Notes under the pieces: model-generated
Told to the model about the DNA's origin: nothing
Databases searched by the model: none
What the model saw: the letters and a program-made list of their open reading frames with translations, nothing else
Source: Opitutaceae bacterium
Lineage (GTDB): Bacteria > Verrucomicrobiota > Verrucomicrobiia > Opitutales > Opitutaceae
Assembly: GCA_035415285.1 (NCBI GenBank)
Contig: DAOOFR010000001.1
Coordinates: forward strand, 14,732-78,731
Reading direction: 5' to 3'
Length of the DNA: 64,000 nucleotides
Program-made: the position numbers and the translations under genes
Part shown: piece after piece, positions 5,347 to 27,426 of the stretch
Numbering within the stretch: position 1 is the stretch's first letter
Layout of the letters: the number at the start of each line of letters is the position of its first letter

Positions 5347-5350
5347 GGTG

Positions 5351-5392: not shown

Positions 5393-5498
5393 ATTACCGC
5401 ATGAACTGCAATCCGCAACGTCCCGACTCTCGGCGCGGCCCGCGCCGCGGGCGAGCGTTTTGCGGGGGCCTGAGCACCTTCAACCCGCACCGCTTCCC

Positions 5499-5933
5499 AT
5501 GATCATCGCTCTTCCGCTCACCGAGAACGACGAGTTCTCCCCTCATTTCGGCGCCGCCGCCAAGGCGGCCCTGTTCGAGGTCGATCCCACCGCCCGGATG
5601 ATCCTGCGCACGACGCCCGTTGTGCCACCCGACCCCGAACCCTGTGGCTGGGCCGCCTGGCTCGGCGCGCAAGGAGTCACGCACTTCCTCGCCGGCGGCA
5701 TGGGCCGCGGCGCCCAGCAGCGAATGGCCGCGGCCGGCATCCTGGTGACGGTCGGCGTCGCGCCGGCGGCTCCGGCCGACCTTGTGCAGGCGTATCTCGA
5801 CGGTTCGCTCGCCGCGGGCGCCAATGCCTGCGAGGGCGGCCACCACGAGCACGGCGAACACGGTCACCACCACCACCATCATGGCGAACACGGCCACGAA
5901 CACGGACACCACTGTGGTTGCGGCGCCCACTGA
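5499..5933 (+). CDS. NifX/NifB-C-terminal (dinitrogenase FeMo-cofactor biosynthesis) domain protein with a His-rich tail
   Basis: MIIALPLTENDEFSPHFGAAAKAALFEVD...HFLAGGMGRGAQQRMAAAGI fits the NifX/NifB-C fold pattern. The C-terminus is GGHHEHGEHGHHHHHHGEHGHEHGHHCGCGAH. Start moved to ATG 5499. Confidence 0.8.
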   Translation: MIIALPLTENDEFSPHFGAAAKAALFEVDPTARMILRTTPVVPPDPEPCGWAAWLGAQGVTHFLAGGMGRGAQQRMAAAGILVTVGVAPAAPADLVQAYLDGSLAAGANACEGGHHEHGEHGHHHHHHGEHGHEHGHHCGCGAH

Positions 5934-6375
5934 GGCCGCGCTGCGCGCCCATTGCGCGCAGCAGCATGCCGCCTGTTTCGCCTGCCGGCCCGCCGACCGC
6001 GGCGGGCTCGGGCTCGCTTTCGCCGTGCAGACGGACGGCTCCGTCTCCGCCGAATGGACCTGCCCGCCCGGCGGCGAAAGCTACGCGGGCATCGTGCACG
6101 GCGGCCTGCTCGCCACGGCGCTCGACAGCGCGATGGTGCACGCGCTGTTCGCGCGCGGCGTCGTCGCCCGCACCGGTGAACTTACCGTGCGCTACCGGCA
6201 GTCGGTGCGGTCGGGCAGCCCGGTCACCGTGACCGCGCGCCATCGCAGTGCCTACCCGCCGCTGCATCACCTCGAGGCCGAAATCCATCAGGCCGGCGTG
6301 CTCTGCGCCCGGGCTCGTGGCAAATTCATGGCGATCGAGAACGACTCCGGAGCCGAACCCAACCTCCCGCAATGA
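5881..6375 (+). CDS. PaaI/hotdog-fold acyl-CoA thioesterase (start uncertain)
   Basis: YAGIVHGGLLATALDSAMVHALF...GELTVRYRQSVRSGSPVTVTA is the typical PaaI-family core. Possible starts are ATG 5881 or GTG 5914/5917. The stop overlaps the panD start (ATGA at 6372). Confidence 0.7.
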   Translation: MANTATNTDTTVVAAPTEAALRAHCAQQHAACFACRPADRGGLGLAFAVQTDGSVSAEWTCPPGGESYAGIVHGGLLATALDSAMVHALFARGVVARTGELTVRYRQSVRSGSPVTVTARHRSAYPPLHHLEAEIHQAGVLCARARGKFMAIENDSGAEPNLPQ

Positions 6376-6737
6376 ACGCCCAACCGACCACCTTCCGCAC
6401 GCTGCTCAAGTCCAAGATCCACCGCGCCACGCTCACCGGCAAGGAGCTGAACTACGAGGGCAGCATCGCCATCGACCGCCTGCTGATGGACGCCGCCGAT
6501 CTTGTCGCCGGCGAACAGGTGCACGTGCTCAACCTCAACAACGGCTCGCGCCTGATCACCTACGTGATCGAGGCCCCCGCCGGCTCCGGCACCATGCTGC
6601 TCAACGGCCCGGCCGCGCGGCTGGGCGAGACGGGCGACCTGGTTGTCATCATCTCCTACGCACAGGTGGCGGAGCCCGCCGTCGCGGCGTACCGCGCCCG
6701 GATCGTGCAGGTCGATCCGGCCAACCGGCTGCGCTGA
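6372..6737 (+). CDS. panD: Aspartate 1-decarboxylase
   Basis: LLKSKIHRATLTGKELNYEGSIAIDRLLMDAADL contains the self-processing Gly-Ser site (YEGS). 121 aa, the typical PanD length. Confidence 0.95.
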   Translation: MNAQPTTFRTLLKSKIHRATLTGKELNYEGSIAIDRLLMDAADLVAGEQVHVLNLNNGSRLITYVIEAPAGSGTMLLNGPAARLGETGDLVVIISYAQVAEPAVAAYRARIVQVDPANRLR

Positions 6738-6758
6738 CTCCCGGCCGGGGCGATTGCG

Positions 6759-7613
6759 ATGAAGACCTCGCTCGACTGCCTGCCTTGCCTCCTGCGCCAG
6801 GCCACCGAAGCCATCCGGCTCGGCGCCAAGGACGAGAAGGTCGACGTCATGGTCGTGCGCGAACTGCTCCTGGCGAGCACGACGCTCGACTTCGATCAGC
6901 CGCCTCCCTCGCTCTCCGGGGCGTTGCAGGCGCAGTTGCGCGAGATCACCGGCTGCGCGGACCCGTACCGGGAGGCGAAGCAGCGCTTCAACCGGCTCGC
7001 GCTGGAGCTCCTGCCGCCGCTGGCCGCGGCCGTCGCGCGCAGCGAGGATCCGTTCGGCGCGGCGGTGCGGCTGGCGATCGCCGGCAACATCATCGACCTC
7101 GGGGCCAAGAGCGGGCTCACGGAGGCCGAAGCGCGTAGTGCCGCCTCCGGTGCACTCGCCCAGCCGTTGGTCGGGCCGCTGGCCGCGCTCCACCGCGCCT
7201 CGCGGCACGCCCACCGCATCCTCTACCTCTGCGACAACGCCGGCGAAATCGTCTTCGACCGCGTCCTGATCGAGCAACTGCCGCGCGGGCGCGTCACCGT
7301 GGCCGTGCGCGGGCAGGCCGTGATCAACGACGCCACCCGCGAAGACGCCCTCGTCGCCGGGCTGCCGGAGGTCGCCGAGGTGATCGACAACGGTTCGGCG
7401 TTGCCCGGCACCGTGCTGGTCGACTGCTCACCGGAGTTCCGGCGCCGCTTCGCCGAGTCCGATCTCGTGATCGCGAAAGGACAGGGGAACTTCGAGTCGC
7501 TTCACACCGAGAGCGCGCCGCTGTTCTGTCTGTTCCGCGTGAAATGCCCGACCGTGGCCGACCGCTGCGGTCACCCCGTCGGCAGCCACGTCATCTGGCA
7601 GGCGTCGCGATAA
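6759..7613 (+). CDS. DUF89 (ARMT1-like) metal-dependent damage-control phosphatase family protein
   Basis: N-terminal DCLPCLLRQA, internal CDNAGEIVFDRVLIE and AKGQGNFESL motifs characteristic of DUF89. Confidence 0.85.
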   Translation: MKTSLDCLPCLLRQATEAIRLGAKDEKVDVMVVRELLLASTTLDFDQPPPSLSGALQAQLREITGCADPYREAKQRFNRLALELLPPLAAAVARSEDPFGAAVRLAIAGNIIDLGAKSGLTEAEARSAASGALAQPLVGPLAALHRASRHAHRILYLCDNAGEIVFDRVLIEQLPRGRVTVAVRGQAVINDATREDALVAGLPEVAEVIDNGSALPGTVLVDCSPEFRRRFAESDLVIAKGQGNFESLHTESAPLFCLFRVKCPTVADRCGHPVGSHVIWQASR

Positions 7614-7645
7614 GCCCCGTTGCGGTCGACTGAGTCCGAACCGAC

Positions 7646-7846
7646 ATGCCCACAACTCGTCAATCAACGCGTGTCGACCAAGCGTTGGCGGAAGTCTGCC
7701 GGAACTGCCCGGTGTGCCGGCGCGCCCGAGCGCGACAACGCGGCGCGGCCTTCCAGTTCGTCCAGAAGATCGAAGGGCGAGCCTGCCCGTTTTGCCGGGC
7801 CTACGAGCGAGTCACCGGACACAAAGCCCACGAGCGGGTCTCCTAA
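7646..7846 (+). CDS. Small Cys-rich (zinc-ribbon-like) protein, hypothetical
   Basis: 66-aa ORF with CRNCPVC ... CPFC. Third-position G/C is enriched and it is co-directional with its neighbours. No recognised family. Confidence 0.4.
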   Translation: MPTTRQSTRVDQALAEVCRNCPVCRRARARQRGAAFQFVQKIEGRACPFCRAYERVTGHKAHERVS

Positions 7847-7981
7847 ATTTCCACCATCATTCTTTTCCATCCCCGCGCGCCGATCCACCGCGCGCACGCG
7901 AAGCCAAGGCCACGCCGATCCGGCCCCTGCATGCCGCGGATTGGCTTGGAACAGCGCCCCCCCTGAATCAAACCGCTTCCG

Positions 7982-8353
7982 ATGCCCATCCAGACCCACG
8001 CCAAACTCGTCTTTCGTCGCCCGCCGCACCGGCTCAACTGCGCCCAGGCGGTGCTCGACGCCTATCAGACAGTCACCGGGCACAGCGTCGCCCCGGTCGC
8101 GGACTTCAAGCCTTTCGGCGGGGGCCGCGCCGCCGGGGGCGAGTGCGGCGCGCTCTATGCCGCCTGCCAGGCCGCGCCGTCCTCCGCCGCGGCCATCCGC
8201 GCGGCCTTCGCCGCACGCACCGGCACCACGCTCTGCCGCGAACTCGATGCGTTGCCCTGCGAGGAGTGCGTGGCGCTGGCCGCGCGGTTGCTCGCGCAGC
8301 TCCACTCCGACGTTCGGACCGCCCCCTCCTCTCCTACCCCAACCAAACCATGA
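7982..8353 (+). CDS. C_GCAxxG_C_C family putative redox-active protein
   Basis: NCAQAVLDAY ... GGGRAAGGECGALYAA resembles the C-GCAxxG-C-C signature. The stop overlaps the next start (ATGA at 8350). Confidence 0.6.
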   Translation: MPIQTHAKLVFRRPPHRLNCAQAVLDAYQTVTGHSVAPVADFKPFGGGRAAGGECGALYAACQAAPSSAAAIRAAFAARTGTTLCRELDALPCEECVALAARLLAQLHSDVRTAPSSPTPTKP

Positions 8354-8727
8354 CGAACATCCCCGATACTGTACGCGCCGCGTGGACCGACCACGACGGC
8401 CCCATCGTGCTCACCACCATCGACGGCGCCGGCGTGCCCAACTCCATCTACGCGACTTGTGTGCGTGAATACGACGCCGCGACCATCGTCGTCGCCGACA
8501 ACTACTTCAAGAAGACCCGCGCCAACATCCTGGCCGGCTGCCGCGGCGCCTTGTTGTTCATCACGAAGGAGGGGAAGTCCTACCAGCTCAAGGGCCGCAT
8601 CGAGTACCACACCACCGGTCCGGTTTTCGACGACATGAAGACGTGGAATCCCGCCAAGCATCCCGGAGTCGCGGCGGCGGCGCTCAAGGTCGAGCAGGTC
8701 TACTCCGGCGGGGAGCAACTGGCGTAA
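8350..8727 (+). CDS. Pyridoxamine 5'-phosphate oxidase-like FMN-binding split-barrel protein
   Basis: GPIVLTTIDGAGVPNSIYATCV...VVADNYFKKTRANILAG...ALLFITKEGKSYQLKG fits the PNPOx-like fold pattern. A paralog lies at 16200-16577. Confidence 0.7.
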   Translation: MTNIPDTVRAAWTDHDGPIVLTTIDGAGVPNSIYATCVREYDAATIVVADNYFKKTRANILAGCRGALLFITKEGKSYQLKGRIEYHTTGPVFDDMKTWNPAKHPGVAAAALKVEQVYSGGEQLA

Positions 8728-8780
8728 CCACCGCAGCGCAGCCCATCGTCGCGCCCAAACCAGGCTGTTCCTTGTCGCCC

Positions 8781-9422
8781 ATGCCCTCGCTGGAAGAAAT
8801 GATCCGCGCCAACCGCCGGGCGATGAAGGCCCGGGAAGTCGTGTTTCGACGTCACGGTTACGATTCGCCCGCCAGTCTGGCGTTTGCCGTCGGCCGGATC
8901 TTGCCGCTGCCCGGGCGGGTGCTGGAGATCGGAACCGGGCGGGGGCGCTTCCTCGGGGCGCTCGCCGACTATGTCGACCGGTTGACCACGCTCGACGCCG
9001 ACGCGGCGCAGCAACGAACTGCACGGCTCCATGTCCGGCGGAGCGCGGGTGGCCGGCCGATCCGCTTCGTCGTCGGCGATGCGGCGAGGCTGCCCTGGTC
9101 GGCGGCGAGCTTCGATGGCGTCGTCACCATGAACACCTTCCATCATCTGGCGTGCCCGCTCGCGGTGCTGCGGGAGATGATGCGGGTGCTGAAGCCCGGC
9201 GGCAAACTCGCGCTCTGCGACTTCTCCCCGCGCGGATTCCAGATCTTCGACCGGATCCACCGGGCCGAGGGCCGCGTGCATCCGCGGCTCGAAAAGGGAC
9301 TGGTCGAGTTTCGCCGGCACCTGCGCGAGGCCGGTTGGCGAACTTCGCACTGCAAGGGATGCAACCAGGAGTTGCTGATCGCGGTCGCGCCACTTGCGGC
9401 TGTTCGCCGCCGGACGGCGTAG
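8781..9422 (+). CDS. Class I SAM-dependent methyltransferase
   Basis: Motif I VLEIGTGRGRF, then DAARLPWSAASFDGVV and LKPGGKLAL (Methyltransf_11-like). Start moved to ATG 8781. Confidence 0.85.
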   Translation: MPSLEEMIRANRRAMKAREVVFRRHGYDSPASLAFAVGRILPLPGRVLEIGTGRGRFLGALADYVDRLTTLDADAAQQRTARLHVRRSAGGRPIRFVVGDAARLPWSAASFDGVVTMNTFHHLACPLAVLREMMRVLKPGGKLALCDFSPRGFQIFDRIHRAEGRVHPRLEKGLVEFRRHLREAGWRTSHCKGCNQELLIAVAPLAAVRRRTA

Positions 9423-9446: not shown

Positions 9447-9770
9447 ATGGGGCGGTTTCAGTTCCAGTGTGCCGCAGCCGAGCGCGCGGTCGTGTATGTC
9501 GACCGCTTGCGTGTGCACCGCAGCCGCACCGAACCGGCGCGCACCGCCGGCGAGCGGTTCGGCCACCGCTGGTGCCATCTGTGGATCGAGGATCTCGCGG
9601 CGCTGCATGCGATGGCCGAACGACTCGGGATGCGGCGCGAGTGGTTTCAGGACCGCCCTGGCTTTCCGCATTACGATCTGCCCCCGTTCCGGCGCGAACG
9701 CGCGCTCGAGTTGGGGGCGGTCGAGCATTCGCTGAAGGCTTGGCTGCGTGGCCAGCGGGTCCTTGGGTAG
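9447..9770 (+). CDS. DUF4031 family protein
   Basis: VYVDRLRVHRS...FGHRWCHLWIEDLAALHAMAERLGMRREWFQDRPGFPHYDLPPFRRERALELGA matches my recollection of DUF4031. A decayed copy lies at 16725-16928. Confidence 0.65.
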   Translation: MGRFQFQCAAAERAVVYVDRLRVHRSRTEPARTAGERFGHRWCHLWIEDLAALHAMAERLGMRREWFQDRPGFPHYDLPPFRRERALELGAVEHSLKAWLRGQRVLG

Positions 9771-9857
9771 CCCGACCGCCGGGCGTGCGTAGTTATTCGC
9801 GACAAACAGCCGGAGCCGTTCGCGGACGACGGCGCCGGCGTGCGGCGTCGCTTCAGC

Positions 9858-10032
9858 CTGAAAAGCGCAGTTGGAACCGACAGAAGGAAACGAAGAGAAC
9901 GAAGTGTGAACGAGTTGGATAACAAAATCCGGGGTCTCGGTCTTCATCTGGCAGGTGAAGGGGGATTTCGCGGAGCTGTGAGCACTGGTTTCCCTTGGTC
10001 CGGAGTTCCTTTGTTTCCTTCGTTACCTTCTG
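9858..10032 (+). repeat. Intergenic inverted-repeat element, copy 1 (MITE-like or structured RNA)
   Basis: Alignable over its length with 40567-40730. A near-identical core aatccggggtctcgg.cttca.ctggcaggtgaa is present. Terminal inverted repeat cagaaggaaacgaag (9881-9895) pairs with cttcgttaccttctg (10018-10032). Confidence 0.7.
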
Positions 10033-10193
10033 TCGTCTGCGGAATTTAGGTTCAGGCACGGTTCCTTCCGCACGGCGTTTGACGGCTCGTGCAACCCGGG
10101 CGGGGCGGGTCCGCGTCGGTTCGGAGCAGCGGGCGCCGAGAAAAGATGCAGCGCCTGTAAGTTTCCCCCGCCGCCGGGCTTCTACCCGGTGCC

Positions 10194-10568
10194 ATGAACA
10201 ACTCCTCCAAAATCATCATTCCCGCCCTTGTCCTCGCCCTCTTCGCCGTGCCGGTCTTCGCCCGCGGCAACGGTAATGGCAATGGTGGCGGTCGCGGCAA
10301 CGGCGGCCAACAGCGCAGCCAGACAACCGCCAAGCAATGCGACGGCTCCGGTCCGCGTCACGGTGATCGCGCTTTGTGCGACGGTTCCGGTCCCGGCCAG
10401 GGCACGCCCCGCCGCGATGGCTCCGGCAAAGCGCTGAACGACCGCGGCAACCCCAACTCCACCGGCACCCCGCTGCGCGACGGTTCCGGCCGGTCCTCCG
10501 CCCCGGGCCAGGGGGCGAAAGACGGCTCCGGCAACAATCCGGACTGCCCGCTGGCCTCCGGCTCCTGA
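10194..10568 (+). CDS. Small secreted repeat protein with DGSG(P) motifs
   Basis: Signal peptide IIIPALVLALFAVPVFA, then a GNGNGNGGGRGNGG tract and five DGSG repeats (CDGSGPRHGD, CDGSGPGQG, RRDGSGKA, RDGSGRS, KDGSGNN). Confidence 0.55.
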   Translation: MNNSSKIIIPALVLALFAVPVFARGNGNGNGGGRGNGGQQRSQTTAKQCDGSGPRHGDRALCDGSGPGQGTPRRDGSGKALNDRGNPNSTGTPLRDGSGRSSAPGQGAKDGSGNNPDCPLASGS

Positions 10569-10656
10569 ACCACGCGCCGTTCCGTTCGCACGACTCAGCG
10601 TCCATCTGTTGGGCCGTGTCCCTCCTTTGTTCGGTCATCGGTCCGTTCCCCCTGTC

Positions 10657-11139
10657 ATGAATAAGATCCTCCTTCTCGTCCTCGCCGCCCTCGTCCCGAC
10701 GGCGTTCGCCCTCACGACCGCCGACACCGCCAATCTGGTCTTCCTCAAACAGGAGGAGAAGATGGCCCGCGACGTCTACCAGGTCCTCCACGCGAAATGG
10801 GGCCACCCCGCCTTCGCCAACATCAGCTTGTCCGAACAGCGTCACATGGATTCCGTTACTGCGCTGCTCGCACGCTATGGCATCGCGGATCCGACTCCGG
10901 TCCAACCCGGGGTCTTCACGATCCCCGCGCTGCAGGCGCTGTACGACCAGCTCGTCGCCGAAGGCGCCAAGTCCCTCCAGGACGCCCTCGCGGTCGGGGT
11001 GCTGATCGAGGAGACCGACATCGCCGACATCCAGCGCCTGCTCGACGCCACGCGCGAACGTCCGATCCGTCGTGTGCTGACCAACCTCCAGCGCGCATCC
11101 TACAACCACCGCGCCGCGTTCACCCGTTCCCTCGAATAG
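10657..11139 (+). CDS. DUF2202 ferritin-like domain protein (secreted)
   Basis: Signal peptide MNKILLLVLAALVPTAFA. LVFLKQEEKMARDVYQVL ... SEQRHMDSVTALL ... LIEETDIADIQ ... NLQRASYNH has the duplicated E..H-type ferritin-like helices seen in DUF2202. Confidence 0.7.
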   Translation: MNKILLLVLAALVPTAFALTTADTANLVFLKQEEKMARDVYQVLHAKWGHPAFANISLSEQRHMDSVTALLARYGIADPTPVQPGVFTIPALQALYDQLVAEGAKSLQDALAVGVLIEETDIADIQRLLDATRERPIRRVLTNLQRASYNHRAAFTRSLE

Positions 11140-11276
11140 GCCTTCGTGCGTCGGACCGTATCGGATCGGCCGTTTCCCAGCCGCCGGCCGGCCCGAACCG
11201 CGGCCCGACGCACGCCGCTCCGCCCGCCAATCCTCGTTCGCATCGCCGCACTTTTGTTCTTTGATACCACCCGCGA

Positions 11277-11930
11277 ATGTCCCTCGCCGCCGCCCTCGCT
11301 TCCGTTGTTTCGCCCGACCGGCTCCTGCACTGGCTCTGCGCCTTTGCCGCTCCGGCCGGAACCGACCGCGCCGGGGCCCAGGCACCGGAGGACGATGACC
11401 ATGCCTGCCTGCGTCGCGTGGCTGCGGGCGATCCCGATGCGTTGCAGCCGCTTTTCGACCGCTGGAAGCTGCCGCTGCTCAGCTTCTTCTATCGAGCGCT
11501 CGGCTCGCGTCCCGACGCCGAGGATCTCGCCCTCCAGACTTTCGACCGGGTCTATCGCGCCGCGGCCCGCTACCGGCCGGATGCGAAGTTCTCCGCCTGG
11601 CTGTTCACCATCGCGCGCCACGAACTGCGCCATGAACTACGGCGCCGCCGGCGCAAGCCCGTCGAGGCCGTGGCGCCCGAGGATCTTGCGTTGCTGGCGG
11701 TCGACGCGTCCCCCGCGGAGCGCCGCCGTGCCGCCGAGTTGGAGGAACAACTGCTTGCCGCGCTCCAGGAACTCCCCGAGCGCCAGCGCAGCGCGCTGCT
11801 CCTCACGGCCGCCGGGGACCTTTCCCACGCCGAGATCGCCGGCACGCTCGGTGTATCGGAGTCCAACCTCCACGTGATCCTGCACCGCGCCCGCCACGCG
11901 TTGCGTAGTCTGTTCCCTCTCCGTCCATGA
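11277..11930 (+). CDS. ECF-type RNA polymerase sigma factor (sigma-70 family)
   Basis: Region 2 DAEDLALQTFDRVY...FSAWLFTIARHEL and region 4 LPERQRSALLLTAAGDLSHAEIAGTLGVSESNLHVILHRAR. Confidence 0.9.
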   Translation: MSLAAALASVVSPDRLLHWLCAFAAPAGTDRAGAQAPEDDDHACLRRVAAGDPDALQPLFDRWKLPLLSFFYRALGSRPDAEDLALQTFDRVYRAAARYRPDAKFSAWLFTIARHELRHELRRRRRKPVEAVAPEDLALLAVDASPAERRRAAELEEQLLAALQELPERQRSALLLTAAGDLSHAEIAGTLGVSESNLHVILHRARHALRSLFPLRP

Positions 11931-12304
11931 AATCGCCCGACAATTCAGCTACGCCCCACGACCCGGAAGTGCTCCTGCGCTCCGGTCTGCGCGACACCAC
12001 GCCGGAGTTCGAACACCGGTGGACCACCCTGAAGCGACGGTTGCGCACCAAGCCGGTTCCACGGCGGAGCTACGCCCCCGGCTGGTGGTGGGGCTTGGTC
12101 TCCGCAGGGATCACCTTCGCCGTGATCCTGTTCGTGCTGCGCCCGCAGTACCCGGCGCCTCGTCCGATGCCTATCGCCGAGCTCGCCGCCTACGAGGAGT
12201 TGTTCCGGCTCGAGGACGAACTCCACCCCGCCCTTCCGCTCTCCGAGAACACCATGCTCGACGATCTGCTCGCCATGCCCACGCCGTCCCTTGATCCGTC
12301 ATGA
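11927..12304 (+). CDS. Single-pass membrane protein, candidate anti-sigma factor
   Basis: ATGA overlap with the sigma gene stop. One TM segment WWWGLVSAGITFAVILFVL. No zinc-binding anti-sigma motif, so the assignment rests on position only. Confidence 0.5.
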   Translation: MKSPDNSATPHDPEVLLRSGLRDTTPEFEHRWTTLKRRLRTKPVPRRSYAPGWWWGLVSAGITFAVILFVLRPQYPAPRPMPIAELAAYEELFRLEDELHPALPLSENTMLDDLLAMPTPSLDPS

Positions 12305-12774
12305 AACCACTTCGCCTGCTCTTTTCTTTCTGCCTTTTGTTGGCCGTCGCGGTTCTCGCCGCGCCGCCATTGACCGCTGCCCCGGCCGCCGTTGGTAACC
12401 AGAACAGGGTCGCCAGCTCCGGCGACGACTTTCCGGCGCTGGAGCGTTTCCTCACCCTCAGCGACGAGCAACTCGACCGCATCCAACAAGCGGTGGCAAA
12501 AGTGCGCGCGATGAGCCCGGCCGAACGCGCCGCGCTCCACGCGCAGTTGCACGCCTTCCGCCAGTTGCCCGAGTCCAAGCGCGCACAGGTTCGCGCCGGC
12601 TGGGGGTGGCAGACCGAACAGGACCGCGTCGATTGGCCGCCGATGATGCGTTCGCTGCCGGAGGCGGAACGAGTCCGGATTCAGCGGGAGCTCCAGTCGC
12701 TGCCGCCGGAGACCCGCGCGGCGCACAAGCACGCGCTGCTCGAAAAGTGGCGGCAGCTGGGTACGGGGGAATAA
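12301..12774 (+). CDS. Secreted DUF3106-like helical repeat protein
   Basis: ATGA overlap with the previous gene. Signal peptide LLFSFCLLLAVAVLAAPPLTA. Repeated LS/P..ER motifs (MSPAERAAL, LPESKRAQV, LPEAERVRI, LPPETRAAH). Confidence 0.55.
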   Translation: MKPLRLLFSFCLLLAVAVLAAPPLTAAPAAVGNQNRVASSGDDFPALERFLTLSDEQLDRIQQAVAKVRAMSPAERAALHAQLHAFRQLPESKRAQVRAGWGWQTEQDRVDWPPMMRSLPEAERVRIQRELQSLPPETRAAHKHALLEKWRQLGTGE

Positions 12775-13014
12775 CGTCGCACAAGCGGCACCTGGCGGCC
12801 GCTCCGTTCGGGGGCCAAGCGCGCCCACCTGCGGGGCGGGCGGCAATCGCACCAAGCGAATCAGGTCACCAGACCGCTGCACCAACGCCGACGGCCCGTG
12901 AGCGCCGCAGCGGGACTTCCTCCGCACCGCGAAGGGGGGGGGACACAAACCGCGCCCCGCGCTTGGACGAAGCGCGCTGGGCGCCGTGGGCGGAGGACGG
13001 GGTCTCCAGTTCGC

Positions 13015-13057
13015 GAAAAGCAAGGCTTGTGTGTGGCTCTGTTATGGGCATATGCTC
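13015..13057 (+). promoter_or_regulatory. Conserved promoter/operator block; core GTTATGGGCATATGCTC at 13041-13057
   Basis: About 43 nt alignable with 5351-5392 (GAAAAGCAAGGCTTGTGTGTGGCTCTGTTATGGGCATATGCTC). Located upstream of the NifX-like operon that starts at 13356. Confidence 0.6.
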
Positions 13058-13355
13058 ACAACAAGATGGATCCTACTCCACAACTGTCGCGGTGCCAGCC
13101 GACCGGGACCGGGGATCGAGCGTATTGCTCGGCGCCGGCCGCGGAAGCGGGGTTCGTCCGCGTTGGGCCCACCCGGGCGGGTCCCCGGACGAGCCGGCGC
13201 GCCCGCCCCCGTGAACCGTTCCTTTCGCACCACCATCCCGAACCCGAGGGGCGGCAGGACAGGCCCCGCGGGCGCCTGGGCCCCGGGCCGGCTTGCCTTT
13301 TGCTAAACCGTCAACCGCGGTCGAACGGCCGCCTCTCCCATACTTGTATCCACCC

Positions 13356-13721
13356 ATGAAGATCGCCATTCCACTCACCGCCGGTCGCCTGAGTTCCCAT
13401 TTCGGACATTGCGAGCAGTTCGCCCTCGTCGAGGTCGACCGGATCGCCGGGAAAATCTCCGGTCAGTCCCTTGTCGTTCCGCCTCCGCACGAGCCCGGGT
13501 TGTTGCCGCGCTGGCTCAAGGAGCGAGGCGTGCAGGTCGTCATCGCGGGTGGCATGGGGCGCCGGGCCCTCGATTTGTTCGCGGAGAACGGGATCGCCGT
13601 GCATGCCGCCGGCGCGGACTCGGCCCTCGAGGGGCTCGTGCCGGCTCTTCTCCAGGGAGCCCTCGGCGACGAGAAGCCAACCTGCGGGCACGACCACGAG
13701 CACACGCACTGCACCTCATGA
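13356..13721 (+). CDS. NifX/NifB-C-terminal domain protein with a His/Cys tail
   Basis: MKIAIPLTAGRLSSHFGHCEQFALVEVD...VVIAGGMGRRALDLFAENGI. The tail is CGHDHEHTHC. Paralog of 5499-5933. Confidence 0.8.
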   Translation: MKIAIPLTAGRLSSHFGHCEQFALVEVDRIAGKISGQSLVVPPPHEPGLLPRWLKERGVQVVIAGGMGRRALDLFAENGIAVHAAGADSALEGLVPALLQGALGDEKPTCGHDHEHTHCTS

Positions 13722-14077
13722 AGATCGCCCTAACCATGGAGGGGCCGGAAGCCGACGCGGCGCTCGACCTGCGCTTCGGCCGCGCCCGTTGTTTCAGAAT
13801 CATGGATTCGTCCACCGGGAAACAGACCTGTGTCGGGAATTCCGCCGGGGTGGACGCCGCGCAGGGCGCCGGCACGCAGGCCGTGCAAACGTTGGCGCGC
13901 CTCGGCGTTCAGGTCGTCATCACCGGGCATGTCGGTCCCAAAGCGTGGACCGCGCTCCAGGCCGCCGGCATCCGCGCCTATTCGGCGGCACAGGGCACCC
14001 CCGCCGAGCTCGTGGAGGACTTCACGGCCGGGCGACTTGTCGAGATCGGAGGGGCCGACCGGCCGGGCCACGGTTGA
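13718..14077 (+). CDS. NifX/NifB-C-terminal domain protein
   Basis: MKIALTMEGPEADAALDLRFGRARCFRIMD...VVITGHVGPKAWTALQAAGI. The start overlaps the previous stop (ATGA). Confidence 0.8.
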   Translation: MKIALTMEGPEADAALDLRFGRARCFRIMDSSTGKQTCVGNSAGVDAAQGAGTQAVQTLARLGVQVVITGHVGPKAWTALQAAGIRAYSAAQGTPAELVEDFTAGRLVEIGGADRPGHG

Positions 14078-14183
14078 GCACCGCCACCTCGCCTTGCGGC
14101 GTCAGGCCACCGGTGCGGCGGTGCCCCTGTGGTTGCCCCGACTCCGCGGCCGGCTTCAGCGCCGAAACCCGAAATCTGATACC

Positions 14184-14351
14184 ATGACACTCCAGAGAGA
14201 GCGAACCGGTCTGCTCGAACAAGGCCCGGTGGGCCGGGGCCGGTGGACCGGCGGCATGAGGCCGGGAGTGGACCGCGGTCGGGGCCGTGCCCTGGCGCGG
14301 CGCGGCGCCTGGCCCGCCCACCCGACGAAACCACAGCGGACCTGCCCATGA
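14184..14351 (+). CDS. Tiny Gly/Arg-rich protein, possibly DUF5320-like
   Basis: 55 codons, MTLQRERTGLLEQGPVGRGRWTGGMRPGVDRGRGRALARRG... Its stop overlaps the ATG of the next gene (ATGA at 14348), which suggests translational coupling. The DUF5320 similarity is from memory and is weak. Confidence 0.35.
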   Translation: MTLQRERTGLLEQGPVGRGRWTGGMRPGVDRGRGRALARRGAWPAHPTKPQRTCP

Positions 14352-15226
14352 AGATTGTGATCGCCAGCGGCAAGGGCGGCACGGGCAAGACCACCGTCGC
14401 GACCAATCTGGCCGCGACCATCGCCGGTCGCGGTTGGACCGTGACCTATGTGGATTGCGACGCCGAAGCGCCCAACGGGCATCTTTTCCTGCACCCAAGG
14501 ATCGAGGACACCGAGGCGGTCGATCGTCGCGTCCCCCTGGTCGATCCCAACCTCTGCCTGCATTGCGGCGCATGCGCCGAACTGTGCCGTTTCAACGCCA
14601 TCCTCTGTCTGCCCACCCACACGGTGATCTACGCCGAGTTGTGCCACAGTTGCGGCGGTTGCGCTCTGGTCTGCCCGGCGAACGCGATTCGCGAGGAGGC
14701 CCGCCCGATGGGACGGGTGAGCCGCGGCGCAGCGGGGCCGGTGCGGTTCGTATCCGGCACGCTCGACGTGGGCGAGGCCAACAGCCCCCCGGTGGTGCGC
14801 GCGGCGAAGTGCGCCGCTCCGGCTACGCAATGGACCATCCTCGACGCCCCGCCCGGCACCAGTTGCCCGATGATCGAGACCGTGCGCGATTGCGACTATG
14901 TCGTGCTGGTGACGGAGCCAACGCCGTTCGGGCTGCACGATCTGCGCCTGGCGATCGCCGTGGCCCGTTCGCTCGGCCGCCCCTGCGGTGTCGTAGTGAA
15001 CCGGGCACGGCCCGAGGCGGGCGAAGCGCGGACGCTTTGCGCCGAGGAAGGCGTGCCGCTTCTGGCGGAGATCCCCGAGGACATCGCCATCGCCCGGGCC
15101 TACGCGCGCGGGCGGCTTGCGGTGGAGTGCGTGGACGGCCTGCGGGCGCTCTTCGAGAACTTGTACCGGAGCTTGGAGACAGCCGGCGGCGTGCCGGCGG
15201 CCGGCGAACCGGAAGGACGGCCATGA
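14348..15226 (+). CDS. MinD/ParA-superfamily P-loop ATPase with a 2x[4Fe-4S] ferredoxin insert (COG1149-type)
   Basis: Deviant Walker A SGKGGTGKTT. Ferredoxin motifs CLHCGACAELC and CHSCGGCALVCP. Start at ATG 14348. Confidence 0.9.
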   Translation: MKIVIASGKGGTGKTTVATNLAATIAGRGWTVTYVDCDAEAPNGHLFLHPRIEDTEAVDRRVPLVDPNLCLHCGACAELCRFNAILCLPTHTVIYAELCHSCGGCALVCPANAIREEARPMGRVSRGAAGPVRFVSGTLDVGEANSPPVVRAAKCAAPATQWTILDAPPGTSCPMIETVRDCDYVVLVTEPTPFGLHDLRLAIAVARSLGRPCGVVVNRARPEAGEARTLCAEEGVPLLAEIPEDIAIARAYARGRLAVECVDGLRALFENLYRSLETAGGVPAAGEPEGRP

Positions 15227-16146
15227 ACGACAAATTTCCGCTTTACGAACTGGTCGTGCTCAGCGGCAAGGGCGGCACGGGCAAGACCTCGGTCACGGCG
15301 TCGCTCGCGGTGCTGTCCGGCGGTCGGGCGGTTTTTGCCGACTGCGATGTCGACGCCGCCAACCTCGAGTTGGTCCTGGGGCCGACGCTGCGCGAGCGCG
15401 CCTCGTTTTCGGGAGGCGAGCGGGCGGTCGTCGATCCCGGGCGCTGCACGGGCTGCGGCAGGTGTGTCGAGTTGTGCCGGTTCGGCGCCATCGAGTTCGC
15501 CGCCGGGCCGGACGGGCGGCGGGTCGCCCGGATCGATCCGCCCGCCTGCGAGGGCTGTGGCGTGTGCGAACGGCTCTGCGCGGAGCGGGCGATCTCGATG
15601 CAGCCGGTGGACGGCGGTGCGTGGTTCGTCTCCGACACGCGGCATGGTCCGCTGGTCCATGCGCGGCTGACGCCCGGGCTGGGAAACTCCGGGAAACTGG
15701 CGACGCAGGTGCGCGAGCGGGCGCGACGCGAGGCGCGCGCGCTGGGGCGGCCGCTGGTGCTGGTCGACGGCCCTCCCGGGGTGGGCTGCCCGGTGATCGC
15801 CACGCTCACCGGCGCCAGCCAGGTGCTGGCCGTCACGGAGCCGACCCCCTCGGGCGAACACGATCTCAGGCGCCTGCTCGAGCTGTGCCGGCATTTCCGG
15901 ATACCGGTTTGGGTGTGTCTGAACAAGGGCGACCTGTTCCCGGAGCTGGCGGTCCGGATCGAGGCGCTGGCCGCCGAGTTCGACGCGAGGTGCGTGGGCT
16001 CGATCCCGTTCGATCCGGCGGTGACGGCGGCGCAGCGTGCGGCCTTGGCGACGGTCGAGCACGGCGACGGCCCGGCGGCGCGCGCGCTCGTGGAACTGTG
16101 GGGGCGATTGTCCCCCTTGTTGCCCGGCGGTCGGCCGCCCGGTTGA
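15223..16146 (+). CDS. MinD/ParA-superfamily P-loop ATPase with a 2x[4Fe-4S] ferredoxin insert (second copy)
   Basis: SGKGGTGKTS, CTGCGRCVELC and CEGCGVCERLC. The start overlaps the previous stop (ATGA at 15223). This is the real part of track ORF 14287-16146. Confidence 0.9.
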   Translation: MNDKFPLYELVVLSGKGGTGKTSVTASLAVLSGGRAVFADCDVDAANLELVLGPTLRERASFSGGERAVVDPGRCTGCGRCVELCRFGAIEFAAGPDGRRVARIDPPACEGCGVCERLCAERAISMQPVDGGAWFVSDTRHGPLVHARLTPGLGNSGKLATQVRERARREARALGRPLVLVDGPPGVGCPVIATLTGASQVLAVTEPTPSGEHDLRRLLELCRHFRIPVWVCLNKGDLFPELAVRIEALAAEFDARCVGSIPFDPAVTAAQRAALATVEHGDGPAARALVELWGRLSPLLPGGRPPG

Positions 16147-16199
16147 GCGGGCGGTGCTGGCGCGTTGCCTCCCTCCCCCCATTTATCCAGAATAAAACC

Positions 16200-16577
16200 A
16201 TGACCTGCATCCCTCCTCCCGTCCTCGCCGCGTGGGCCAACCGCGACGGCTACGCTGTGCTCACCACGGTCGACCCGCACGGCATGCCCAACGCGATCTA
16301 CGTCGGCTCGTTCCAGCTGCTCGGCGACGACACCATCGTCATTGCCGACAACTACTTCGCCAAGACGCGGGCGAACATCGGGGCCGGCAGCCGCGGGGCG
16401 TTCGTGTTCCTCACGAAGGAGCGAAAATCCTACCAGTTGAAGGGGCATTTCGAGTACATCACGTCCGGCCCGGTCTTCGACGAGATGAAGCGATGGAACC
16501 CGTCCCGGCATCCCGGCGTGGCGGCGGCCGTGCTGCGGGTGGACGAGGTCTACAGCGGCGCGGAGCGGCTGGCGTGA
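16200..16577 (+). CDS. PNPOx-like FMN-binding split-barrel protein (paralog of 8350-8727)
   Basis: MTCIPPPVLAAWANRDGYAVLTTVDPHGMPNAIYVGS...IADNYFAKTRANIGAG...FLTKERKSYQLKG aligns end to end with the 8350 protein. Confidence 0.7.
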   Translation: MTCIPPPVLAAWANRDGYAVLTTVDPHGMPNAIYVGSFQLLGDDTIVIADNYFAKTRANIGAGSRGAFVFLTKERKSYQLKGHFEYITSGPVFDEMKRWNPSRHPGVAAAVLRVDEVYSGAERLA

Positions 16578-16684
16578 GTAGCGAGTTGGCTGCTTGGGGG
16601 GCGCCGCCGCCCGGGGCGCAGGCGTCCCTGCCTGCGGCCTTCGGCTCGACCGCACCCACGCCGGGAGTCGGTCTTGCCGGTTTA

Positions 16685-16724
16685 CCGCCCACGGACCACT
16701 GCCCACCGTCGACGGTCCACCGGG
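16685..16724 (-). repeat. Short heptamer array, reverse orientation (YCCACCG on the plus strand)
   Basis: cccacgg accactg cccaccg tcgacgg tccaccg. This is the reverse complement of the CGGTGGR family, and it abuts the DUF4031 remnant. Confidence 0.55.
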
Positions 16725-16928
16725 CATCCATCTACGTCGATCGACTGCGCGTGCACCGCAGCCGCACCGAACCGGCGCGCACGGCCGGGGAACAGTTCGG
16801 CCACCGGTGGTGCCACCTCTGGTGCGACGACCTTGCCGCCTTTCGGTCGCGAACGCGCACTCGCACTCGGCGCGGTGGAGCATTCGCTGAAGACGTGGCT
16901 GCGCCAGCGGAGTAATCCTCCCGCGTGA
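16725..16928 (+). pseudogene. Decayed DUF4031 paralog
   Basis: IYVDRLRVHRSRTEPARTAGEQFGHRWCHLWCDDLAA is in one frame and LPPFGRERALALGAVEHSLKTWLR is in another. Relative to 9447-9770, the N-terminus is replaced by the heptamer array and about 85 nt are deleted, with a frameshift. Confidence 0.65.
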
Positions 16929-17270
16929 GAGCGGAGCGTTTCCTCGCCTGGCGCGATGCGCACCAACGGCGCCGCCGAGCCGTGCGCACTCTTTTGTTCT
17001 TGATGAGGTGGTCCTGGGGGGCGTTCGGGCTGTGTTCGCGCCCGCCGGGGTGATACGTGCTCGAGTCGTCGACGGGTTCGTGCTGGCGGTCGCACGCGCT
17101 GGTCTCTACGCGCGGGGGCAGGGCCTGCGTGAGTTGGCGATGCTCCGGTTGTTCGGATGCCCCAAGCGCCTGCGCAGACGGTTCAAGTTCGCGACGGGGC
17201 GGCCGATGGACCGGGCGCGGGTTGTCCTCACACAACCGCATGGCGGGGGGATTCTACTCAAACCGAGTTC

Positions 17271-20415: not shown

Positions 20416-22086
20416 TTACGGTGCGGGCAGTTTTGCCGGAGAACGCGGATCGATGGTGGCGCGAAGGCCGCCGGTGAGCGATTGCACGAGGAAACCGCGC
20501 TGGGCGAGAATGCGCGCGGCGAAGTAGGAGGTCTTGCCGAGGGCGCAGACGGTCACAACCGGGCGGCCCTTGTCGAGTTCGCCGCAGCGCTGGCGCAGGA
20601 CGGCGAGCGGGATGTTGATCGTGCCGCGGCGCGGGATGGGGTGCTTAGAGGCGAGGTCGGCCGGGCGGATGTCGACGATCTGCACGGCGGGATCGTCGGG
20701 CAGCGAGTCCACGGGATCGAGCAGGCCGTCGCGGGTGTTGCAGGCGGCCAGACCGGCGAGGTTCACGGGATCCTTCGCGGAGCCGAAGGGCGGGGCGTAG
20801 GCGAGCTCGAGTTCGGCGAGGTCGTCGATCGCGAGCCCGCCCGCGATCGCTGTCGCCATGACATCGAGACGCTTGTCGACGCCGGCCAAGCCCGTGGCCT
20901 GGGCACCGAGCACCCGGCCGTCCGCCGGGTCCCAGAGCAGCTTGAGCATGAGCGGCTGCGCGCCGGGATAGTAGCCGGCGTGGTGGTTGTCGTTCACCGT
21001 CACCGTGCAGTAGTTACGGCCGGCGACACGGAGCCGCTTCTCGGACCAGCCGGTGAGGCCGGCGGTGACGCCGAAGGCGCGCACGATCGCGGTGCCGAGC
21101 GCGCCGGGGAGCGGCTTCATCGCGGCGGGGCGGAAGATGTGGTCGGCGACGGCGCGCCCCTGGCGGTTGGCGGGGCCGCCGAGCGGCACCGCGCAGGTGT
21201 CGCCGGTGACGAGATCGCGAACCTCGATGGCGTCGCCCGCGGCGTAGATGTCGGGGTCATTGGTGCGGAGGTATTCGTCGGTGCGAATGTGGCCGCGCGG
21301 GCCGAGCTCGAGGCCGGCCGCCTTGGCCAGCGCGGTGTCGGGCCGTACCCCGATGGCGAGCACGACAAGGTCGGCGGCGAGGGAGCGGCCGGACTTGAGC
21401 TGGCAGGCGAGTGCGCCGCAGGCGGGGGCGAAACCGGCGATGGCGTCGCCGAGGTGGAGCTGCACGCCGTGGCGTCTGAACTCGTCCTCCATGAGCAGTG
21501 TCATGGGCCGGTCGAGCGGCGGCAGGAGCTGGTCGAGCAGTTCGACGAGGGCGACCTCCTTCTTGAGGTGCACGAACTGCTCGGCCATTTCGAGGCCGAT
21601 GAAGCCGGCGCCGATGACGACGACTTTCTGGGCTTCGGTGACGGCGGTCTTGATGCGGTCCATGTCGCCAAGGGAGCGGAGCGTGTGGATGCGTGGGTCG
21701 TCGATGCCGGGGAGCGACGGGCGCAGCGGCGCGGCGCCGGGTGCGAGCACGAGCTTGTCGTAGGGCAGCCACTCCTCGGCGCCGGTGGCGAGGGTGCGGA
21801 GCTGCACGCGTTTGCCTGCGCGGTCGATGGCGACGGCCTCGGTGCCGGTGCGGGCGTCGACGTTGAGCAGCGCCCGCAGCGACTGCGGCGTGTGGATGGC
21901 CAATGCGTTGCGTTCGGGGATCTCTCCGCCGACGTGGTAGGGCAGGCCGCAGTTGGCGAACGACACGTCGGGTCCGCGCTCGATCAGGGTGATCTGGGCG
22001 GCTTCGGAGAGGCGACGGGCACGGGCGGCGGCGGTGGCGCCGGCGGCGACACCGCCGATGATGACAAGACGGAGCGGGTTGGACAT
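20416..22086 (-). CDS. CoA-disulfide reductase / NADH-dependent persulfide reductase-like flavoprotein fused to a rhodanese domain
   Basis: FAD motif IIGGVAAGATAAARA, redox Cys SFANCGLPYHVGG, NAD motif VVIGAGFIGLEMAE and a C-terminal rhodanese active-site loop VVTVCALGKTS. Confidence 0.9.
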   Translation of the reverse strand: MSNPLRLVIIGGVAAGATAAARARRLSEAAQITLIERGPDVSFANCGLPYHVGGEIPERNALAIHTPQSLRALLNVDARTGTEAVAIDRAGKRVQLRTLATGAEEWLPYDKLVLAPGAAPLRPSLPGIDDPRIHTLRSLGDMDRIKTAVTEAQKVVVIGAGFIGLEMAEQFVHLKKEVALVELLDQLLPPLDRPMTLLMEDEFRRHGVQLHLGDAIAGFAPACGALACQLKSGRSLAADLVVLAIGVRPDTALAKAAGLELGPRGHIRTDEYLRTNDPDIYAAGDAIEVRDLVTGDTCAVPLGGPANRQGRAVADHIFRPAAMKPLPGALGTAIVRAFGVTAGLTGWSEKRLRVAGRNYCTVTVNDNHHAGYYPGAQPLMLKLLWDPADGRVLGAQATGLAGVDKRLDVMATAIAGGLAIDDLAELELAYAPPFGSAKDPVNLAGLAACNTRDGLLDPVDSLPDDPAVQIVDIRPADLASKHPIPRRGTINIPLAVLRQRCGELDKGRPVVTVCALGKTSYFAARILAQRGFLVQSLTGGLRATIDPRSPAKLPAP

Positions 22087-22195: not shown

Positions 22196-22519
22196 CTATT
22201 TGGGCAGGTTCGAGCCGAGCCAGGTGCGCACGGAGCCTTCGGGCATGGAGCCGCTGAACTCCGCCGCGATCTGACCGGCGTGGAAGAGCTTCACGTTCGG
22301 GATGCCGCGGATGCCGAACTGCTCGGCCAGCTCGGGGTGGAGATCGACGTTGACCGTGACCAGCGACCAACGGCTGGCCGCCTCGCCGGCGAGCTTCTCG
22401 AGGACGGGTTTGAGCGAGCGGCACGGGCCGCACCAGGGCGCCCAGAAGTCGACCAGCACCGGCACGGTGCGGCTGCGCTCAAGGACATCGGCGGAGAAAT
22501 CGGATACTTCGTGGTTCAT
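22196..22519 (-). CDS. trxA: Thioredoxin
   Basis: 107 aa with VLVDFWAPWCGPCRSLKP, the canonical WCGPC active site. Confidence 0.9.
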   Translation of the reverse strand: MNHEVSDFSADVLERSRTVPVLVDFWAPWCGPCRSLKPVLEKLAGEAASRWSLVTVNVDLHPELAEQFGIRGIPNVKLFHAGQIAAEFSGSMPEGSVRTWLGSNLPK

Positions 22520-27387: not shown

Positions 27388-27426
27388 TAGTTGTTGCAGA
27401 CGGTAAAGGACTGCTGCGTTCGCCGG

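Follow-up and report, generated by a model that had tools for sequence, protein, structure and literature searches.

In this study we analysed a 64,000-nucleotide (nt) stretch of DNA of an Opitutaceae bacterium (Verrucomicrobiota; contig DAOOFR010000001.1 of assembly GCA_035415285.1, positions 14,732 to 78,731 of the forward strand), referred to below as the window. Positions 13356-16577 contain six chained genes (g1-g6), which are compared here with the orange protein (ORP) complex of Desulfovibrio spp. The genes are as follows (aa, amino acids).

13356-13721, plus strand: g1, 121 aa; Pfam PF02579 (Nitro_FeMo-Co), E 3.9e-17
13718-14077, plus strand: g2, 119 aa; PF02579 (Nitro_FeMo-Co), E 2e-21
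14184-14351, plus strand: g3, 55 codons, Gly/Arg-rich; without a family match
14348-15226, plus strand: g4 (ATPase A), 292 aa; CbiA/ParA and Fer4 matches
15223-16146, plus strand: g5 (ATPase B), 307 aa; NCBIfam minD_arch and ferredoxin-type matches, CbiA and Fer4
16200-16577, plus strand: g6, 125 aa; PNPOx_N (PF01243), E 2.5e-12, 47.7 bits against a cut-off of 28.1

The co-directional chain described in the initial annotation of this DNA was verified: ATGA overlaps occur at three junctions (g1/g2, g3/g4 and g4/g5), and the two short gaps, g2-g3 and g5-g6, are of 106 and 53 nt, respectively. The G+C content of the window (approximately 70%) generates many mechanical open reading frames (ORFs); g1, g2, g4, g5 and g6 nevertheless have family matches. 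Identical copies of the locus are carried by six metagenome contigs from anaerobic digesters. The initial statement that the window contains no nitrogenase held for its annotated parts (approximately 4.3-44.7 kb, and ten large ORFs at 43-61 kb), the first ~4.3 kb and the segment 61-64 kb being unscanned. No Rfam match was detected in the whole window at gathering thresholds or in the region 12700-14400 at E ≤ 1, and RNA folding of the 294-nt leader of g1 and of the g2-g3 spacer gave z-scores of +0.8, i.e. no special structure.

Analysis of g4 and g5 bore out their description as two paralogous MinD/ParA-type ATPases, each interrupted by a two-cluster ferredoxin insert. These MinD/Mrp-fold proteins are 34% identical, and each contains a deviant Walker A motif (SGKGGTGKT) and two CxxCxxCxxxC motifs (C70/73/76/80 and C99/102/105/109 in g4; C75/78/81/85 and C109/112/115/119 in g5). 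Seven of the eight ferredoxin Cys residues of g4 are fully conserved in 58 orthologues, as are all eight of g5 in 54 orthologues. The sole further invariant residues of this kind, Cys173 of ATPase A (DAPPGTSCP) and Cys189 of ATPase B (DGPPGVGCP), are 100% conserved in the same sets. Both are placed seven residues after the Walker-B Asp, a spacing that we take to parallel Asp125 and Cys132 of NifH. The AlphaFold2 model of g4 (predicted local distance difference test, pLDDT, 93.5) revealed a confident MinD/HypB/Cfd1/NifH-type fold, with archaeal MinD, ATPase-type HypB, Cfd1, ApbC and NifH as the nearest folds and with a terminal helix at residues 265-279. No solved structure covers the ferredoxin insert, and the query-normalised template modelling score (TM-score) did not exceed 0.60. 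The ATPase A family comprises 786 clusters (50% identity) at E ≤ 1e-30, and natural A-B fusions of approximately 600 aa, with all motifs kept in each half, are frequent among the top-scoring ATPase representatives. These fusions, together with the one invariant extra Cys of each protein, support a predicted A-B heterodimer.

A fusion of another type was observed in a different Verrucomicrobiota digester lineage, in which ATPase A is joined to a class I S-adenosylmethionine (SAM) methyltransferase (P0071, 490 aa; locus L091, 8001-9473). This protein, together with the separate methyltransferase gene (8781-9422) present in the same regulon of the window, suggests a functional link between the two activities. 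The N-terminal "extensions" of 80-100 aa in the ATPase A homologues P0002, P0028 and P0087 were considered as a possible conserved domain and rejected, since they are gene-calling artefacts, in which an upstream DUF5320-type gene is read out of frame.

Matches of both g1 and g2 to PF02579 confirmed that they encode NifX-type proteins, the former with the CGHDHEHTHC tail recognised earlier (...KPTCGHDHEHTHCTS), although the two represent distinct subgroups of this family. Among proteins of solved structure, g2 is closest to the orange protein of Desulfovibrio gigas (PDB 2WFB; E 4.6e-20, 44% identity over 110 residues), and the loci retrieved with an ORP+g2 profile show the same neighbour genes. 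By sequence comparison, g2 is therefore an orthologue of the orange protein (ORP/Orp8), i.e. a putative NifX-fold carrier. In contrast, g1 gave no match to 2WFB in a PDB sequence search, its closest solved relatives being 1T3V/1O13 (TM1290; E ~3e-13). It is a NifX-fold ("Di-Nase") protein of the TM1290/MrpORP C-terminal type, and its best curated family is NCBIfam MrpORP, of which it matches positions 265-364 (E 2.9e-32, 112 bits). The Di-Nase motifs defined by Pardoux et al., namely (C)xHFGHCE, TPPPHxPGxxP and a C-terminal Cys/His motif (PMC6345978), are represented in g1 by SSHFGHCE, VPPPHEPGLLP and the C-terminal CGHDHEHTHC; the family consensus in relatives is ...LCxHFGHCE...PPPHEPG...ACDH.

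The other part of MrpORP was found elsewhere in the window:

34390-35259, plus strand: Mrp/NBP35 Fe-S carrier, in a def-Mrp-aminotransferase-radical SAM-rubrerythrin/VIT1 string

This protein bears the bridging CxxC motif in the form CPHC and scores 345 bits against MrpORP positions 1-249, compared with 211 bits against ApbC. Mrp and g1 are separate in the window and neither alone reaches the 450-bit cut-off for the fused protein; a fusion is seen in 21 of the 44 Mrp ORFs detected in ORP loci, the others being separate. Because g1 matches the C-terminal part of MrpORP and the window Mrp its N-terminal 249 positions, MrpORP (Orp9) appears to be present in a split form, to which g1 and the unlinked Mrp gene together provide a match.

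The gene set had been assumed to be experimentally undescribed. This proved to be incorrect, as it matches the genes of the Desulfovibrio ORP complex (PMC6345978, PMC8359166). In D. vulgaris, two [4Fe-4S] ferredoxin motifs are present in each of the similar proteins Orp3 and Orp4, the small proteins Orp5 and Orp8 are of the Di-Nase kind (Orp8 being the orange protein), and Orp9 is MrpORP (PMC6345978). Orp3, Orp4 and Orp8 co-purify (PMC6345978, PMC8359166), and MrpORP passes Fe-S clusters to Orp3-Orp4-Orp8 in vitro (PMC6345978). The ATPases g4 and g5 fit the Orp3/Orp4 type, as judged by the published description, the synteny with ORP and the MrpORP match. The features common to both systems are the orange protein orthologue (g2), single-domain NifX-fold extras (g1 and NifX3, a gene of the upstream region described below), an MrpORP-type Mrp, two paralogous MinD-type ATPases (g4 and g5) with two [4Fe-4S] ferredoxin motifs each, and an anaerobic host. 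The locus is therefore of a known kind, and what is new is its host (Verrucomicrobiota instead of Desulfobacterota), the split MrpORP, with g1 and Mrp at separate loci under the same operator, the additional accessories (a DUF5320-like remnant, PNPOx, and upstream ARMT1, GCAxxG and methyltransferase genes) and the mode of control. In place of the OrpR/sigma54/integration host factor (IHF) control, the window has a DUF134 gene and a palindrome of 22 bp, and one co-directional string replaces the two divergent operons of Desulfovibrio, whose ORP genes are controlled by OrpR/sigma54 (PMC6345978, PMC8359166).

The distribution of these genes was analysed in 80 ORP loci identified with an ORP+g2 profile (one genome per species), 39 of which have a full 20-kb context; the D. 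vulgaris and D. gigas loci are absent from this set. The loci span Desulfobacterota, Planctomycetota, Verrucomicrobiota, Lentisphaerota, Armatimonadota, Bathyarchaeia and others, and BLAST with the window proteins showed that the genes recur in the order ORP, ATPase A, ATPase B, (Mrp), g1-type NifX. The frequencies were as follows.

Both ATPase A and ATPase B: 55 of 80 loci; 31 of 39 full-context loci
Mrp or g1-type gene: 67 of 80 loci; 39 of 39 full-context loci
DUF134: 17 of 80 loci; 9 of 39 full-context loci
DUF5320: 18 of 80 loci; 7 of 39 full-context loci
PNPOx: 2 of 80 loci; 1 of 39 full-context loci

The co-conservation expected from the initial annotation was thus observed for the ATPases and for Mrp or g1-type genes, but not for PNPOx, whose status as a core member of the set was rejected. 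The conserved synteny, like the A-B fusions, is indirect evidence for a putative physical complex of the Orp3-Orp4-Orp8(-Orp5-Orp9) kind.

A regulatory element was recognised in three copies within the window, one of them beside the DUF134 gene:

5041-5346, minus strand: DUF134 gene (UPF0251-type helix-turn-helix protein); Pfam PF02001, E 3.1e-19, 69.8 bits (cut-off 27); HTH_29 and Sigma70_r4-like matches
5376-5397, no strand: operator copy 1, 2 mismatches; 30 nt upstream of the DUF134 start (minus strand) and 102 nt upstream of NifX3 (plus strand)
13041-13062, no strand: operator copy 2, GTTATGGGCATATGCTCACAAC, 2 mismatches; 294 nt upstream of g1
33835-33856, no strand: operator copy 3, 4 mismatches; 14 nt from the COG0523 start (minus strand) and 34 nt from the def start (plus strand)

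The operator is a 22-bp palindrome of the consensus GTTATGGGCATATGCCCATAAC. The presence of three sites, compared with at most 0.06 expected from shuffled sequences with up to 6 mismatches, substantiated the claim that the operon has an operator in common with SufB/COG0523/Mrp genes: the COG0523-SufB and def-Mrp genes of the window are linked to the operon by it. In ORP loci the palindrome was found 15-125 nt upstream of 9 of 20 DUF134 genes, compared with 2.5% of random windows, and the ORP operon of many loci begins with DUF134. An exact-match metagenome scan with TTATGRGCATATGCYCATAA yielded at least 120 contigs; in 85-88 of the 120 listed, from various phyla, DUF134 lies directly beside the motif. 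Further genes adjoining the motif among the matches listed are ARMT1/DUF89 (at least 13), a dehydrogenase family (at least 9), DUF5320 (at least 4), ORP, NifX and Mrp. From these data we infer that DUF134 binds the palindrome and autoregulates. A candidate -35/-10 pair (TTGTGT, 16 nt, CATAAG or CATATG) overlaps the palindrome, and because of this overlap with the possible -10 region DUF134 is probably an autoregulating repressor.

A sigma-70 scan of the region 12700-17200 did not identify a promoter, and terminator-like sites occurred there at chance level, none of them between genes. The only sigma54 -24/-12-like site (at 13289) has 3 mismatches and represents chance frequency, and no enhancer-binding protein (OrpR-type activator) is present in the window gene tables. 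The PDB sequence search revealed no relative of DUF134, and among the searchable papers no report on DUF134, UPF0251, COG1342, COG1149 or DUF5320 describing a relevant function or regulon was found; a mention of DUF134 in PMC10434189 is an unrelated table entry. According to the literature, OrpR is restricted to delta-proteobacteria. A gene coding for a PAS and sigma54-activator protein (OrpR-like architecture; L091, 1-942) adjoins a Verrucomicrobiota ORP cluster with ZnuA/ABC-3 transporter genes.

Two further observations concern the vicinity of the palindrome. A block CGAGCGT(A/T)TTGC(T/G)CGG, which forms a short inverted repeat, is located ~50-70 nt downstream of it (13116-13131, 5452-5467 and, in L087, ~5650). 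Moreover, the ARMT1/DUF89 "damage-control phosphatase" gene recurs beside the palindrome in 13-14 of the 120 contigs listed (of at least 120). It was found in the metagenome loci L108, L113, L134, L143, L153, L172, L175, L181, L185, L191, L208 and L212, and inside the ORP operons of L031, L032, L086, L091 and L178. In the window it is accompanied by PanD-like, 4HBT thioesterase, C_GCAxxG_C_C, PNPOx and methyltransferase genes.

The genes surrounding g1-g6 that are relevant to its history and control are grouped as follows (ECF, extracytoplasmic function).

5499-9422, plus strand: proximal operon half; NifX3 (5499-5933), 4HBT thioesterase, PanD-like, ARMT1/DUF89 phosphatase, C_GCAxxG_C_C, PNPOx2, SAM methyltransferase
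9447-12774, plus strand: inserted module; DUF4031, 124-aa ORF, DUF2202, ECF sigma, anti-sigma, DUF3106
31396-33821, minus strand: COG0523-SufB set, divergent from operator copy 3; COG0523 GTPase (32805-33821), 112-aa ORF, SufB (31396-32473)

In the relatives L087 and L088 (ATPase 79% identical) the operon is a single gene string, divergent from DUF134, of the order 4HBT, PanD-like, ARMT1, 127-aa ORF, PNPOx, methyltransferase, NifX, ORP, 87-aa ORF, A, B, PNPOx. It includes most genes of the proximal half, but not NifX3. A shorter string (4HBT, PanD, NifX, ORP, small ORF, A, B) is present in L089 (88% identity). The module 9447-12774, which separates the methyltransferase gene from g1 in the window, is absent from L087, L088 and L089. 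In addition, ~130 nt of the DUF134 promoter/operator region, enclosing operator copy 2, are repeated upstream of g1: in an alignment, the sequence flanking this copy resembles positions 5340-5505 and the regions upstream of DUF134 in L087 and L089. On the basis of gene order, g1-g6 represents the distal half of an ancestral operon, divergent from DUF134, that was split by the insertion of the ECF-sigma module. Because the promoter region is duplicated and the string is split, what had been described as a dedicated operator is a duplicated copy that restored control of the distal half after the insertion.

A motif CCGTTCC(N)TTCGCAC was detected at 10058-10073, 10576-10591 and 13215-13230, i.e. 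80-140 nt upstream of three plus-strand genes, those of the 124-aa ORF, DUF2202 and g1. Possibly this motif acts as a promoter element, by which g1-g6 would also come under the control of the ECF sigma factor.

SufB of the divergent set scores 378 bits against TIGR01980 (cut-off 346); its match starts at model position 103, and a separate 112-aa ORF lies upstream. The whole minus-strand region 26218-33821 (COG0523, 112-aa ORF, SufB, threonyl-tRNA synthetase, TonB-dependent receptor, ZIP transporter, ArsR-type regulator) resembles a zinc/metal-starvation set, the 5' end of which bears the DUF134 palindrome and not a recognisable Zur box. It is also worth mentioning that a gene with Pyr_redox_2 and rhodanese domains (coenzyme A (CoA)-disulfide or persulfide reductase type) is located a few kb from the ORP genes in the window (20416-22086, minus strand), in L091 (13429-15105) and in L092. 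A thioredoxin gene accompanies it in the window (22196-22519, minus strand) and a peroxiredoxin gene in L091/L092. Through this neighbour the locus may be connected with the metabolism of sulfide or persulfide.

The Gly/Arg-rich ORF of 55 codons noted initially (g3) is present and ATGA-coupled to g4, but it is a degraded gene. It gave no match to Pfam or NCBIfam, even at E 10, and no DUF5320 score. In L087 and L089 the interval between ORP and ATPase A contains an 87-aa ORF (MTP(M/N)GDGTGPFGQGPMGKGMGPCGGGQRRGMGQG..., followed by GQGRGM repeats), whose matches to DUF5320 (PF17253) are weak (E 1.3e-4 and 1.8e-3) and do not reach the gathering threshold. At this position, canonical DUF5320 genes (E 7.9e-28) are carried by loci of Planctomycetota, NC10, Verrucomicrobiota and others; the DUF5320 genes counted above in 18 of the 80 ORP loci stand at the g3 position, as do those of L091/L092. 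The hallmarks of DUF5320 are an MPRGDGTGPxGxGPxTGRGxGxCxG N-terminus, a Gly/Arg-rich region, WRNxFxATGLxGW and a C-terminal coiled coil; g3 lacks the conserved Cys, the WRN motif and the coiled coil, so it does not qualify as a member of this family. In the DNA alignment, the first ~41 codons of g3 are in frame with the 87-aa ORF. The repeats are missing owing to a deletion of ~130 nt, the reading frame of the 3' end is a different one, and the ancestral TGA has become CGA, so that the ORF now stops at the TGA of the ATGA overlap. Because BLASTP against the 87-aa orthologue gave only E 0.04 over the first 16 residues, homology of g3 rests on its position and on the in-frame DNA alignment. Judged by these, g3 is a genuine homologue, i.e. 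a truncated, frameshifted positional orthologue of the DUF5320-like gene, and it may be a decaying remnant.

A second type of small protein, in which the DUF5320 N-terminal motif (MPRG(D/N)GTGP...) is joined to a CxxC...CPxC zinc-ribbon-like C-terminus, was observed in or beside several ORP clusters. The DUF5320/zinc-ribbon-like small proteins are encoded at:

1522-1896 of L053
10828-11076 of L064
5791-6120 of L066
2923-3180 of L072

The last gene, g6, was described as a PNPOx-like flavoprotein. The PNPOx_N match stands, but the flavin was an assumption: the closest solved relatives of g6 are the haem-binding HupZ (E 1.5e-7) and then a flavin mononucleotide (FMN)-binding protein (E 9e-4). It is 63% identical to its window paralogue at 8350-8727, and PNPOx genes occur in the close relatives L087/L088. 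Judged from this distribution, g6 is a lineage-specific (Opitutaceae) accessory, apparently a small split-barrel protein of the PNPOx/HupZ-like type.

Taken together, these results indicate that the operon is probably the Opitutaceae (Verrucomicrobiota) version of the anaerobe-specific ORP complex, with a role in the handling of metal-sulfide clusters and under the control of DUF134. The general initial interpretation of the locus as Fe-S ATPases acting with NifX-fold cluster carriers is upheld by the family and fold matches. In the mechanism that we propose, g4 and g5 would form an ATP-dependent heterodimer with four [4Fe-4S] clusters, whose two invariant Cys residues could build a metal or cluster site at the interface. 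Mrp would load the Fe-S clusters, by analogy with the in vitro reaction of the Desulfovibrio proteins, and the A-B dimer would dock the small NifX-fold carriers g2 and g1. The D. gigas homologue of g2 holds an anionic Mo-Cu-sulfide cluster non-covalently, and the MrpORP domain homologous to g1 binds a [3Fe-4S] cluster. ATP and low-potential electrons would drive the assembly, transfer or sequestration of metal-sulfide clusters in a sulfidic, reducing environment, in a manner that may be akin to that of NifH acting on NifEN/NifX. DUF134 bound at the palindrome would bring the complex under joint control with Fe-S and metal-chaperone genes. In this model, g3 would be a DUF5320-like gene in decay, and g6 would serve as an accessory of this lineage with a redox or haem function.

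The ATPases g4 and g5 have in common with Mrp/NBP35/ApbC and with ATPase-type HypB/CooC the fold, the Walker-B context D-x-PPGT and a predicted role in metal or Fe-S delivery. They differ from all of these in the two-cluster ferredoxin insert, which is present in no solved structure, and from Mrp/NBP35/ApbC in having a single Cys (PPGTSCP, PPGVGCP) and no CxxC outside the insert. With NifH and NifX-NafY-NifB(C-terminal) the ORP proteins share a SIMIBI-class dimeric Fe-S ATPase and small PF02579 carriers of complex metal-sulfide clusters. Unlike in NifH, the clusters of g4/g5 would be held by the ferredoxin insert and not exclusively at the dimer interface, and g4 and g5 are not of the NifH/BchL type: their PF00142 match spans residues 5-55 (the P-loop) only, and each subunit has one non-ferredoxin invariant Cys, not two.

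Several points weigh against the metal-sulfide interpretation or its parts. The Desulfovibrio authors call the role of the ORP complex "unclear" and favour a link with cell division. The assignment of g4/g5 to Orp3/Orp4 draws on description, synteny and the MrpORP match rather than on direct alignment with DVU2103/DVU2104, and the putative interface site would be built from one Cys per subunit. It is possible that the Mo-Cu cluster seen in the D. gigas orange protein arose during isolation. Adjacency is the sole basis for the binding of DUF134 to the palindrome, and the 294-nt leader is long and has no consensus sigma-70 promoter. Finally, g3 is uncalled as a gene on all six metagenome contigs with the locus, and its conserved Cys is lost.

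The published alternative, proposed for D. vulgaris, is cell division or spatial positioning, in which the MinD-like ATPases would place the septum or a cargo at the membrane or pole and the Fe-S clusters would act only as redox sensors. The closest solved folds of g4 are indeed archaeal and bacterial MinD, the Walker A motif is deviant, and g4 has a predicted terminal helix. In Desulfovibrio, inactivation of OrpR leads to morphological defects, MrpORP is polar, and Orp3/Orp4 have a C-terminal amphipathic helix. However, g4 is not a member of the MinD families, as it scores 41.5 bits on TIGR01968 minD_bact (cut-off 212.9) and 71.3 bits on TIGR01969 (cut-off 201.75), and no MinC, MinE or division genes are present in the window gene tables. 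The metal-cluster model is favoured over cell division because every co-regulated or co-conserved partner (ORP, NifX-fold proteins, Mrp, SufB, COG0523, ARMT1) is metal or Fe-S related; we consider a division role in this operon unlikely.

Storage or detoxification of Fe-S (thioferrate-like) or thiometallate species, although an attractive variant, is, in our opinion, improbable. According to this explanation, NifX-fold and cationic DUF5320 proteins would sequester anionic polymers, as does IssA of Pyrococcus furiosus, and the ATPases would load or unload them. IssA belongs to the PF02579 family, and its cationic Gly/aromatic-rich tail has been proposed to bind thioferrate (PMC5524996). The PF02579 globular domain is common to both systems, as is the cationic Gly-rich partner, which in relatives of the window locus is a separate DUF5320-type ORF: in many ORP loci a DUF5320 gene (GRGWRNxFYATGLxGW, Gly/Arg-rich) immediately precedes that of ATPase A. 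The non-covalent cluster of the orange protein and the recurrence of the CoA-disulfide-reductase-like and rhodanese gene near the cluster also fit such a role. On the other hand, g1 and g2 are without the IssA-type tail, the DUF5320-like gene of the window is truncated and degraded, and DUF5320 occurs in only about one fifth of the ORP loci. In addition, the IssA system as described is without ATPases, there is no evidence for nanoparticles, and a storage function has no biochemical support for any of the ORP proteins.

That g1/g2 and g4/g5 are true NifX/NifH-type accessories for the maturation of an enzyme of the nitrogenase or nitrogenase-like type whose genes lie elsewhere in the genome is highly improbable: the family name of g1 and g2 ("dinitrogenase iron-molybdenum cofactor"), their PF02579 domain, a weak match to TIGR01290 nifB (E 0.0036) and the P-loop similarity to NifH point that way, but g2 groups with ORP and not with NifX/NafY, the NifH match of g4/g5 is confined to the P-loop, annotation of the window revealed no nif genes (including NifEN) in the parts that it covered, nor were any recorded for close relatives in their gene tables (the search of the 80 ORP loci used the window proteins only), and the ORP system has been described as anaerobe-wide and independent of diazotrophy.

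Returning to the metal-sulfide reading, a broader version of it, which we put forward tentatively and regard as rather doubtful as a whole, would make DUF134 the master regulator of a cross-phylum "ORP regulon" acting through TATG(R)GCATATGC(Y)CATA. This regulon would include the ORP ATPase/carrier complex, Mrp, SufB, COG0523, ARMT1/DUF89 and DUF5320, which might jointly carry out the ATP/redox-driven handling of anionic metal-sulfide species (Fe-S, thiomolybdate, thiotungstate) in sulfidic anaerobes, with A-B acting like NifH on NifX-fold carriers and DUF5320 acting like the IssA tail.

The ORP complex is widespread in anaerobes, and its function has been called unclear since 2011. A simple palindromic operator tied to DUF134 makes its regulon readable directly from sequence, and a regulon that joins the complex with SufB, a COG0523 metallochaperone and Mrp argues for a metal/Fe-S rather than a cell-division role. 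The fusions (A-B and A-methyltransferase) and the recurrent neighbours (ARMT1/DUF89 and DUF5320) provide concrete candidates for partners of the complex.

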